From a virus (lineage: Duplodnaviria; Heunggongvirae; Uroviricota; Caudoviricetes), in the IMG/VR virus record IMGVR_UViG_3300001567_000141: a stretch of 10,498 nucleotides of DNA. The stretch is one strand, 5' to 3'. The stretch's first letter is position 1. Every line of letters begins with the position of its first letter. Made by a program: the position numbers and the translations under genes. The notes below the pieces were generated by a model, which saw nothing but the letters and a program-made list of their open reading frames with translations, was not told the origin of the DNA and ran no database searches. This document shows, piece by piece, positions 7,992-10,487 of the stretch.

Positions 7992-8330
7992 TAGCTAATC
8001 AACAAAGCTAAGGTTAGTAATTAAGGAGTTCTCCACGGGTGAGGTGGAGTGCGTGCGCCGGACACGGGTGCGCATCCGGAACTGACAGTTTACTGAAAGG
8101 ATATTTCCCTGAAAAGTCAGACCATAACGCGAAAGCGCATGGCGAGGTAGCTGGTTCATAGATAGCCTGTCGTTAAATTTTCGTCGACCGTGCGCTTCCG
8201 GTTGTGGCAACCCGCGAAATGGCGCGGCGGTAAGTATGGCGGGGTTATTCCTTCCCCGTTGAGGACACCGGGTTGTCAGGTTGACCATACGCTTAAGTGA
8301 CAACCCCGCTGCAACGCCCTCTGTTATCAA

Positions 8331-8388
8331 TTTTCTGGTGACGTTTGGCGGTATCAGTTTTACTCCGTGACTGCTCTGCCGCCCTTTT
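8331..8388 (+). ncRNA. dicF: DicF small regulatory RNA (about 53 nt plus U tail)
   Basis: Sequence TTTTCTGGTGACGTTTGGCGGTATCAGTTTTACTCCGTGACTGCTCUGCCGCC followed by CTTTTT matches DicF as remembered; ends in an intrinsic terminator; exact 5'/3' ends are processing-dependent and uncertain by a few nt. Confidence 0.8.
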
Positions 8389-8558
8389 TAAAGTGAATTT
8401 TGTGATGTGGTGAATGCGGCTGAGCGCACGCGGAACAGTTAAAACCAAAAACAGTGTTATGGGTGGATTCTCTGTATCCGGCGTTAATTGTTAACTGGTT
8501 AACGTCACCTGGAGGCACCAGGCACTGCATCACAAAATTCATTGTTGAGGACGCGATA

Positions 8559-8747
8559 ATGAAAACGTTATTACCAAACGTTAATACGTCTGAAGGTTGT
8601 TTTGAAATTGGTGTCACTATCAGTAACCCAGTATTTACTGAAGATGCCATTAACAAGAGAAAACAAGAACGGGAGCTATTAAATAAAATATGCATTGTTT
8701 CAATGCTGGCTCGTTTACGTCTGATGCCAAAAGGATGTGCACAATGA
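8559..8747 (+). CDS. dicB: Cell-division inhibitor DicB (62 aa)
   Basis: In frame within track ORF 8454..8747; ATG 8559-8561 with GAGG 8 nt upstream; MKTLLPNVNTSEGCFEIGVTISNP... Confidence 0.9.
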   Translation: MKTLLPNVNTSEGCFEIGVTISNPVFTEDAINKRKQERELLNKICIVSMLARLRLMPKGCAQ

Positions 8748-8935: not shown

Positions 8936-9027
8936 AACAGTTCCGTAATAAATATCCGGTTTCATTCTTATATGCCAGCAATGGCAGGGATTTGTTCATC
9001 CTTAAATCTGTCATGAGGTTAAAACAA

Positions 9028-9948
9028 ATGAGTAAAGTCTTTATTTGCGCCGCTATTCCTGACGAACTGGCAACAAGGGAAGAAGGCGCTGTGGCTGTAG
9101 CCACAGCCATTGAAGCTGGCGACGAACGCCGTGCTCGAGCAAAATTTCACTGGCAATTCCTGGAACATTATCCGGCTGCTCAGGACTGCGCTTATAAATT
9201 TATTGTCTGCGAGGATAAACCTGGCATACCCCGCCCTGCCCTCGATTCATGGGATGCTGAATATATGCAGGAAAACCGCTGGGATGAGGAGTCTGCTTCT
9301 TTTGTCCCGGTTGAGACTGAATCCGATCCGATGAACGTCACTTTTGACAAGCTGGCCCCTGAAGTACAGAACGCTGTCATGGTTAAGTTCGACACATGTG
9401 AAAACATCACCGTTGATATGGTTATTAGCGCACAGGAATTGTTGCAGGAAGACATGGCAACATTCGACGGACATATCGTTGAAGCGTTGATGAAAATGCC
9501 AGAAGTTAACGCCATGTATCCGGAGCTTAAGTTGCACGCCATTGGGTGGGTTAAGCATAAATGTATTCCTGGTGCTAAATGGCCCGAAATTCAGGCAGAG
9601 ATGCGCATCTGGAAAAAACGTCGCGAAGGTGAACGCAAGGAAACCGGAAAATACACGTCTGTTGTTGATCTCGCCCGCGCCAGAGCCAATCAACAGTACA
9701 CTGAAAATTCAACAGGAAAAATCAGCCCGGTCATTGCTGCCATTCATCGCGAATACAAGCAGACATGGAAAACACTGGATGACGAACTGGCCTATGGGCG
9801 CTGCTTCGCAGACAGGCAGAACTTGATGGTATGCCTGCGATCAATGCCAAACGTGTTTACCGGATCATGCGCCAGAATGCGCTGTTGCTTGAGCGAAAAC
9901 CTGCTGTACCGCCATCGAAACGGGCACATACAGGCAGAGTGGCCGTGA
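9028..9948 (+). pseudogene. ydfE: ydfE, 3'-truncated and running into IS2 sequence out of frame
   Basis: Track ORF 8992..9948 (TTG); ATG 9028-9030 (MSKVFICAAIPDEL...) with AGGT upstream gives 306 aa; native sequence ends near 9795, the last ~51 codons read IS2 DNA in a non-transposase frame. Confidence 0.75.
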
Positions 9949-10487
9949 AAGAAAGCAATCAGCGATGGTGCTCTGACGGGTTCGAGTTCTGCTGTGATAA
10001 CGGAGAGAGACTGCGTGTCACGTTCGCGCTGGACTGCTGTGATCGTGAGGCACTGCACTGGGCGGTCACTACCGGCGGCTTCAACAGTGAAACAGTACAG
10101 GACGTCATGCTGGGAGCGGTGGAACGCCGCTTCGGCAACGATCTTCCGTCGTCTCCAGTGGAGTGGCTGACGGATAATGGTTCATGCTACCGGGCTAATG
10201 AAACACGCCAGTTCGCCCGGATGTTGGGACTTGAACCGAAGAACACGGCGGTGCGGAGTCCGGAGAGTAACGGAATAGCAGAGAGCTTCGTGAAAACGAT
10301 AAAGCGTGACTACATCAGTATCATGCCCAAACCAGACGGGTTAACGGCAGCAAAGAACCTTGCAGAGGCGTTCGAGCATTATAACGAATGGCATCCGCAT
10401 AGTGCGCTGGGTTATCGCTCGCCACGGGAATATCTGCGGCAGCGGGCTTGTAATGGGTTAAGTGATAACAGATGTCTGGAAATATAG
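9795..10487 (+). pseudogene. insD: IS2 transposase InsD, N-terminally truncated (about the last 230 of 301 aa)
   Basis: Track ORF 9831..10487 begins at an internal Met; the same frame is IS2-like back to about 9795 and is closed by a TGA at 9780-9782. Confidence 0.85.

Follow-up and report, generated by a model that had tools for sequence, protein, structure and literature searches.

Between the DicF terminator and dicB in the operon analysed here lies a gap of 174 nt, and the arms of a long inverted repeat stand near its two ends, which raises the question of what the repeat, and the DNA that it brackets, contribute to the operon. DicF and DicB are toxic cell-division inhibitors in most E. 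coli strains, and their release from one transcript decides when they act; the dicBF operon is normally repressed. The window (the whole stretch of 10,498 nt that was analysed) is the dicBF operon of the E. coli K-12 Qin prophage: segment 8300-8760, over which dicB and ydfD lie, matched E. coli K-12 chromosomes with 100% identity, the DicF sequence was 100% identical to K-12 records, and the dicF-dicB segment was matched in 4637 of 5426 complete E. coli genomes. RefSeq annotation transferred from a K-12 record places ydfA, ydfB, and ydfC upstream of dicB. Scanning the + strand of the spacer revealed neither an internal promoter nor a second terminator, with no terminator-like sites in 8150-8650. 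Part of the spacer falls within a 97-aa in-frame ORF (8454-8747), and we rejected this ORF as coding there because the indels in its variable hairpin are not multiples of three and because the element also precedes unrelated genes. Elsewhere in the window, a cspA-type thermoregulator was found by Rfam at 273-665 on the - strand (158.8 bits), where it covers the leader and coding region of a cold-shock gene belonging to the Qin csp genes, while an exonuclease-like ORF downstream of ydfD (8992-10487, + strand) is disrupted by a transposase fragment of IS2 (IS3 family; ORF 9831-10487), both of which are RefSeq pseudogenes. The features considered below are collected in Table 1.

Table 1. Features of the dicF-dicB region, pairs of the closing helix with compensatory changes, and copies of the enclosed domain outside the window.
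Feature	Position	Strand	Basis or remark
Second predicted long-range helix, upstream of DicF	8122-8147 / 8182-8207	+	MFE fold; ~23 bp, small bulges
DicF sRNA with U-tract	8333..8389	+	Rfam match 8333-8384, RF00039, 76.7 bits (gathering score 48)
DicF terminator hairpin	~8347-8383	+	U-tract 8385-8389
5' arm of closing helix, AAGUGAAUUUUGUGAUGUGGUG	8392..8412	+	exact repeat 8394-8407 inside; pairing probability 0.89-1.00
STnc100-like structured RNA domain	8404..8531	+	Rfam RF02076, covariation, model R1
P1	8404-8412/8523-8531	+	closing stem
J1/2	8413-8415	+	AAU
P2 hairpin	8416-8431	+	
P3 hairpin	8432-8479	+	variable
P4 hairpin	8480-8506	+	with GTTAAC copies
P5 hairpin	8508-8522	+	CCUGG-AGGCA-CCAGG
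3' arm of closing helix, CACUGCAUCACAAAAUUCAUU	8523..8543	+	exact repeat 8528-8541 inside
dicB Shine-Dalgarno	8547-8551	+	GAGGA, read from sequence; 4 nt 3' of helix end
dicB CDS, 62 aa	8559..8747	+	RefSeq annotation mapped onto window; Pfam DicB PF05358, E = 1.9e-40
dicB AUG	8559-8561	+	3' of helix end at 8543
Compensatory pair	8394:8541		U-A to C-G
Compensatory pair	8395:8540		G-C to A-U
Compensatory pair	8398:8537		U-A to C-G
Compensatory pair	8405:8530		A-U to G-C
Compensatory pair	8408:8527		C-G to U-A
Domain copies outside the window	L134 1501-1616; L130 3004-3121; L133 1477-1685		P7/D6/P1-like ban/tRNA operon or Klebsiella prophages

The first-pass annotation had described a perfect repeat of 13 bp, and GAATTTTGTGATG (8395-8407) is indeed the exact reverse complement of CATCACAAAATTC (8528-8540), with the dicB Shine-Dalgarno (SD) sequence following six nt past the 13-mer as it had said. 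The exact repeat is in fact 14 bp long (8394-8407 / 8528-8541), and when G-U pairs are admitted it becomes a continuous helix of 21 bp (8392-8412 / 8523-8543) made up of 18 Watson-Crick pairs and three G-U pairs (8393-8542, 8408-8527, and 8409-8526). The annotated extension to about 21 bp was thus correct in length, while its start at 8391 was off by one, as this nucleotide faces G8544 unpaired. Folding of 8380-8560, which had been suggested as a check, placed the helix in both the minimum free energy (MFE) and the centroid structure (z = -5.2), and the same was true of the longer segment 8300-8620 (z = -3.5). In a partition-function fold of 450 nt (8200-8650), 20 of the 21 pairs had a probability of at least 0.98, and the terminal pair 8392-8543 had a probability of 0.89. 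The 3' arm is not the stem of a Rho-independent terminator, as it is followed by GUUGAGG and by no U-run. The 14-bp repeat is the longest perfect inverted repeat in the 10.5-kb window with arms no more than 200 nt apart, and in dinucleotide-preserving shuffles of the whole window, repeats of at least 14 bp arose in 4 of 300 and of at least 13 bp in 11 of 300, in line with the earlier judgement that chance was an unlikely source. A functionless chance occurrence draws what support it has from these same shuffles, as roughly 1-4% of shuffled windows carry a perfect inverted repeat of at least 13-14 bp; its conservation, its covariation, its match to a reported cleavage site, and the independent re-creation of a long stem from different sequence in Klebsiella-type copies, all described below, make this reading extremely improbable.

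A comparison of the spacer among related prophages had also been proposed, and it found the arms both conserved and covarying. In arm-only constructs, in which the natural arms of 36 distinct E. coli-type variants were joined by an artificial GAAA linker, 97.0% of cells were paired, against only 34-51% in a control in which the partner strand was slid. Compensatory changes were present at five pairs (Table 1) in 13 cells, a count reached in 0 of 500 shuffles, although the sequences are closely related and these figures are to be read as counts, not as probabilities. Uncompensated mismatches also occur in some natural variants, namely an A-C at 8397:8538 in 9 sequences, together with those in L063 and L131. 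RNAalifold, applied to a full-length alignment of 68 non-redundant sequences, recovered the closing helix with double changes in 16 of 36 predicted pairs, the covariation falling in P1, the base of P3, P4, and P5. Klebsiella-type arms (for example UUAAUCAGGAUUUGCAAUGCGGUG / CGCCGCAUCGCAAAGCCUGAUUAA) differ in sequence, yet in 22 of 23 variants they too pair with each other over 13-22 bp, the one outlier having 5 bp. In a transcript of the opposite strand, the many G-U pairs would turn into A-C mismatches, and the structure is therefore one of + strand RNA. The helix is thermodynamically dominant, and on this strand it shows both conservation and covariation.

Four hairpins, P2-P5, make up the fold of the 110 nt that separate the arms, and the GTTAAC copies that had been noted inside the enclosed domain are at 8490-8495 and 8498-8503, in the loop and the 3' strand of the hairpin at 8480-8506. 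A sensitive scan of 8380-8560 matched the Rfam family STnc100 (RF02076) over 8396-8536 with 34.1 bits (E = 3e-6), below the gathering threshold of 47 bits for that family, in an alignment that spans P1, P2, P4, and P5. Related domains score 43 bits in phage P7, 35.6 bits in a Klebsiella phage, and 32.9 bits in Shigella phage 75/02 Stx, and a genuine STnc100 copy scores 132.4 bits. For the converse search we built a covariance model, R1, from 18 spacer-type domains only, with no genuine STnc100 sequence among them, and ran it against 270 kb of contigs, themselves selected by means of a genuine STnc100 sequence. This recovered 38 genuine STnc100 matches at 30 of 30 loci, with 45-66 bits and E values of 1e-10 to 5e-17. 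As homology is detectable in both directions, the interior is a divergent member of the STnc100 superfamily, and thus a structured RNA that is unannotated between dicF and dicB. STnc100 and its relative PasD have in common with the window domain a P1 ending in GGUG, followed by AAU, P2, a variable P3, P4, and P5, as well as the P5 motif CACC-NGGAGGCACCN-GGCACC. Both are prophage sRNAs of Enterobacteriaceae that are known from late regions (bioRxiv 10.64898/2026.05.13.724894), in the case of STnc100 for example downstream of stx2 (PMC12370729), and the 2026 survey of PasD and STnc100 does not mention dicB, kil, or Rac contexts (bioRxiv 10.64898/2026.05.13.724894). Whereas genuine STnc100 sits in late regions with its own terminator and a P1 of 8 bp, the dicF-linked form sits in an early-left operon, without a terminator of its own, on a stem of at least 21 bp. 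Separately, the DicF 5' seed GGUGACGUU (8337-8345) is perfectly complementary to AACGUCACC (8501-8509) in the 3' strand of P4. We rejected a functional pairing between the two and treated the match as chance, since it is of 9 bp only, several equal chance repeats occur within 600 nt, and conservation of the target UCACC within the family does not depend on DicF.

BLAST and pattern scans showed that the domain recurs as part of a cassette composed of a DicF-like terminator hairpin, the 5' arm, the STnc100-like domain, and the 3' arm. The gene downstream of it is dicB (Pfam DicB), the Rac-type septation inhibitor Kil (phrog_294), including kilR of the K-12 Rac prophage, a Rha/Ash-type regulator, or one of several small proteins without known function. 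The cassette is thus modular and movable, and turns up in front of a variety of host-killing or regulatory genes. The recombination junction comes immediately after the 3' arm, and both arms therefore belong to the upstream RNA module. Phage P7, D6, and a P1-like plasmid carry the domain among tRNA genes in the ban operon, with a closing stem of 8-9 bp and no outer arms; a U6 run after the short P1 occurs only in the copy from the P1-like plasmid. By an automatic helix counter that allows bulges and over-extends kil-type stems into the U-tract and A-tract, and that serves for comparison between classes only, stems were at least 21 bp in 38 of 41 dicF/Rac-type variants, with a median of 14 bp in Klebsiella-type cassettes and 8.5 bp in genuine STnc100, against the 8-9 bp of the P1-like copies. 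The long stem is confined to copies that are embedded in early operons.

Individual copies differ around the terminator. K-12 itself carries a second cassette directly upstream of kilR in the Rac prophage (L375 4505-4700, minus strand), where the terminator hairpin is DicF-like and the region 5' of it is different. In kil-type copies, the U-tract of the terminator can also pair with the AAAAA that immediately precedes the kilR SD, giving a stem of ~28 bp. In Klebsiella-type cassettes (L133 1440-1510; L265 and L357), the outer part of the 5' arm shares sequence with the upstream terminator-like hairpin, namely with its 3' half and U-tract, such that terminator and long stem may be partly mutually exclusive in this type, which is not so in K-12.

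These copies also bear on the proposal, raised in the first-pass annotation, that the arms are the terminal inverted repeats of a small MITE-like inserted element. A perfect 14-bp repeat does bracket ~120 bp, and the segment recurs in many genomes. Against this, the flanks (...TTTTTAAAG|TGAATT... and ...AATTCA|TTGTTGAGG) contain no target-site duplication, AAAG on one side being set against TTGT on the other; the arms tolerate G-U pairs and show compensatory changes of an RNA type; the interior is homologous to an RNA family; and within early operons the orientation of the segment never varies. A search for copies at unrelated loci that retain intact terminal repeats found none, and the P7, D6, and P1-like plasmid copies, outside lambdoid early operons, have the interior without the outer arms. 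With a structured, covarying interior in addition, we rejected the inserted-element reading, which is very unlikely to be correct.

The first-pass annotation had further suggested that the duplex might be an RNase III substrate, a suggestion supported by the length of the helix, its covariation, and the position of a published 3' end inside the 5' arm. An RNase III cut here is not new, having already been reported in 1990. In secondary accounts citing Faubladier 1990, RNase III cuts the full-length dicBF mRNA to give the 72-nt DicF (PMC5069750, PMC9438474), and a review lists the dicF-dicB intergenic region as an RNase III substrate (PMC2777011); on this cut, the main texts of two other papers only cite the 1990 paper (PMC6212723, PMC5371410). 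An RNA of 72 nt that starts at the DicF 5' end, 8332/8333, would finish at 8403/8404, in the centre of the 5' arm. This point has 12 bp of the 21-bp helix below it and 9 bp above it, and is where dimeric RNase III should cut. This mapping combines the length given in those secondary citations with the annotated DicF 5' end and carries an uncertainty of ~5 nt; any 72-nt DicF end from 8403 to 8409 still falls within the 5' arm. The reported rnc-dependent 3' end of DicF would thus lie in this helix, and by the stagger rule of a 2-nt 3' overhang, the partner cut would be expected at ~8533|8534 in the 3' arm (PMC6212723). In vivo, the two pairs between the cuts are base-paired and at least one of them is G-C (PMC6212723). 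The predicted cut at 8403|8404 would have G8402-C8533 and U8403-A8532 between the two cleavage points, and the alternative at 8404|8405 would have U8403-A8532 and G8404-C8531 there, a G-C pair being present either way. The helix also has the length expected of such a substrate, being intramolecular, of about two turns (roughly 20-22 bp), and mostly Watson-Crick or G-U paired.

It could be argued that the helix has a purely architectural part, closing the STnc100-like RNA and staying uncut by RNase III in vivo, with the 72-nt DicF end coming from elsewhere or from another nuclease. All members of the STnc100 family do have a closing stem P1, but 8-9 bp suffice outside operon-internal positions, the extra ~12 bp are specific to the cassette and covary, with three of the five covarying pairs lying in the outer extension beyond the family P1, and the 3' end that the secondary literature attributes to RNase III coincides with the centre of the helix. 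We therefore regard a purely architectural role as improbable.

A 2023 paper instead assigns to RNase III only the 5' end of a 190-nt DicF species and leaves a 3' site unmentioned (PMC10448788). Faubladier 1990 is thus summarised in two ways in papers from one laboratory, as concerning the 72-nt 3' end (PMC5069750) or the 190-nt 5' end (PMC10448788). Probably both accounts are correct, each for a site of its own. The MFE fold contains a second long-range helix upstream of DicF (Table 1), and this predicted helix is the likely site of the other RNase III cut, as the 5' end of the 190-nt precursor would be expected at ~8195-8200, in its 3' arm. Placing each RNase III site in its own predicted long-range helix reconciles the two differing accounts, and the dicF-dicB helix offers a structural explanation of a cleavage that was described 35 years ago.

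Taken together, we consider RNase III processing of the 21-bp helix at the base of an STnc100-family domain to be the best explanation of the repeat, and a likely one. According to this model, transcripts ending at the DicF terminator would never contain the arms, and read-through of the terminator would allow 8392-8412 to pair with 8523-8543, creating two turns of double-stranded RNA at the base of the four-hairpin domain. RNase III would bind this helix and cut both strands near its centre, at ~8403|8404 and 8533|8534, with a stagger of 2 nt. The products would be the 72-nt DicF with its terminator hairpin kept, an STnc100-like RNA of ~130 nt closed by the remaining 9-bp P1, and a dicB-ydfD mRNA with a 5'-monophosphate and a leader of ~25 nt. 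In an intact lambdoid phage, antitermination would presumably override the DicF terminator, such that read-through may be expected as the rule, and the RNase III site would plausibly therefore allow DicF to gain a defined 3' end without any need for termination. We infer that a discrete middle RNA would be released, and our guess is that processing would uncouple the dicB mRNA from the upstream RNA and alter its stability or translation, in either direction.

Alternatively, the main role of the helix could be to gate the translation or stability of the dicB mRNA, or of that of kilR in Rac-type copies, by limiting initiation on unprocessed RNA until cleavage or unfolding switches the toxin on. 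Structures of this kind have precedents in the lambda N-leader and cIII. The helix ends only 4 nt before the dicB SD, the ~28-bp extension of kil-type stems reaches the kilR SD, and the predicted unpaired probability of the SD rises from ~0.2 in the precursor to 0.8 in the processed leader. Over the same predicted cut, the unpaired probability of the AUG falls from 0.3-0.5 to 0, leaving the direction indicated by folding equivocal. The distance between helix and SD is not conserved, being ~33 nt in Klebsiella-type copies, and the cassette also precedes unrelated genes. When we looked for an operator that sequesters the ribosome-binding site, neither the dicB SD nor the AUG was paired within the helix, both lying outside it, and direct masking of the dicB ribosome-binding site is therefore not supported by the predicted structures. 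We consider it rather doubtful that gating is the main role of the helix, and note that gating can coexist with processing.

Processing by RNase III also bears on what the enclosed RNA may do. As a tentative proposal, which we consider possible without favouring it, the stem may be an excision signal for a third, so far unannotated product of the dicBF and Rac kilR operons, an STnc100-family RNA of ~130 nt with a function of its own that RNase III would release from read-through or antiterminated transcripts. Candidate roles for such an RNA would be that of a regulator associated with Hfq or ProQ, or of a decoy against the host or competing phages. If true, DicF, the ~130-nt RNA, and DicB or Kil would together make up a host-takeover module of three parts that most E. 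coli genomes carry. The dicF-dicB "spacer" is no spacer, but a conserved member of the STnc100/PasD superfamily framed by a probable processing stem, and the cassette offers a concrete way of testing what STnc100-type RNAs do. In the literature searched, the helix as the extended closing stem of an STnc100-family RNA in a mobile early-operon cassette appears to be undescribed.

Among known systems, the closest in arrangement are the intercistronic RNase III signals of the phage T7 early mRNA (R1-R5), the lambda N-leader, rpsO-pnp, metY-nusA, and rplL-rpoB. Like dicF-dicB, these have an intramolecular helix of ~20 bp in a polycistronic transcript, and their cleavage by RNase III separates functional RNAs and resets the 5' end of the downstream mRNA. 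Unlike them, the dicF-dicB helix is long-range, with 110 nt between its arms, and encloses a conserved structured RNA, whereas the intercistronic signals enclose a small internal loop or hairpin tip. In this respect it resembles the helices flanking 16S and 23S rRNA, in which a staggered RNase III cut releases the enclosed RNA. There, as here, long-range pairing joins the sequences on either side of a structured RNA, but the rRNA stems enclose 1.5-2.9 kb rather than ~130 nt, and release of the RNA enclosed between dicF and dicB is what we would predict from its structure. By their published descriptions, ManS of Salmonella (PMC11745405) and an sRNA pair (PMC8687705) are comparable in a further respect, as there, too, RNase III makes the end of an sRNA from a longer transcript, as is reported for DicF.
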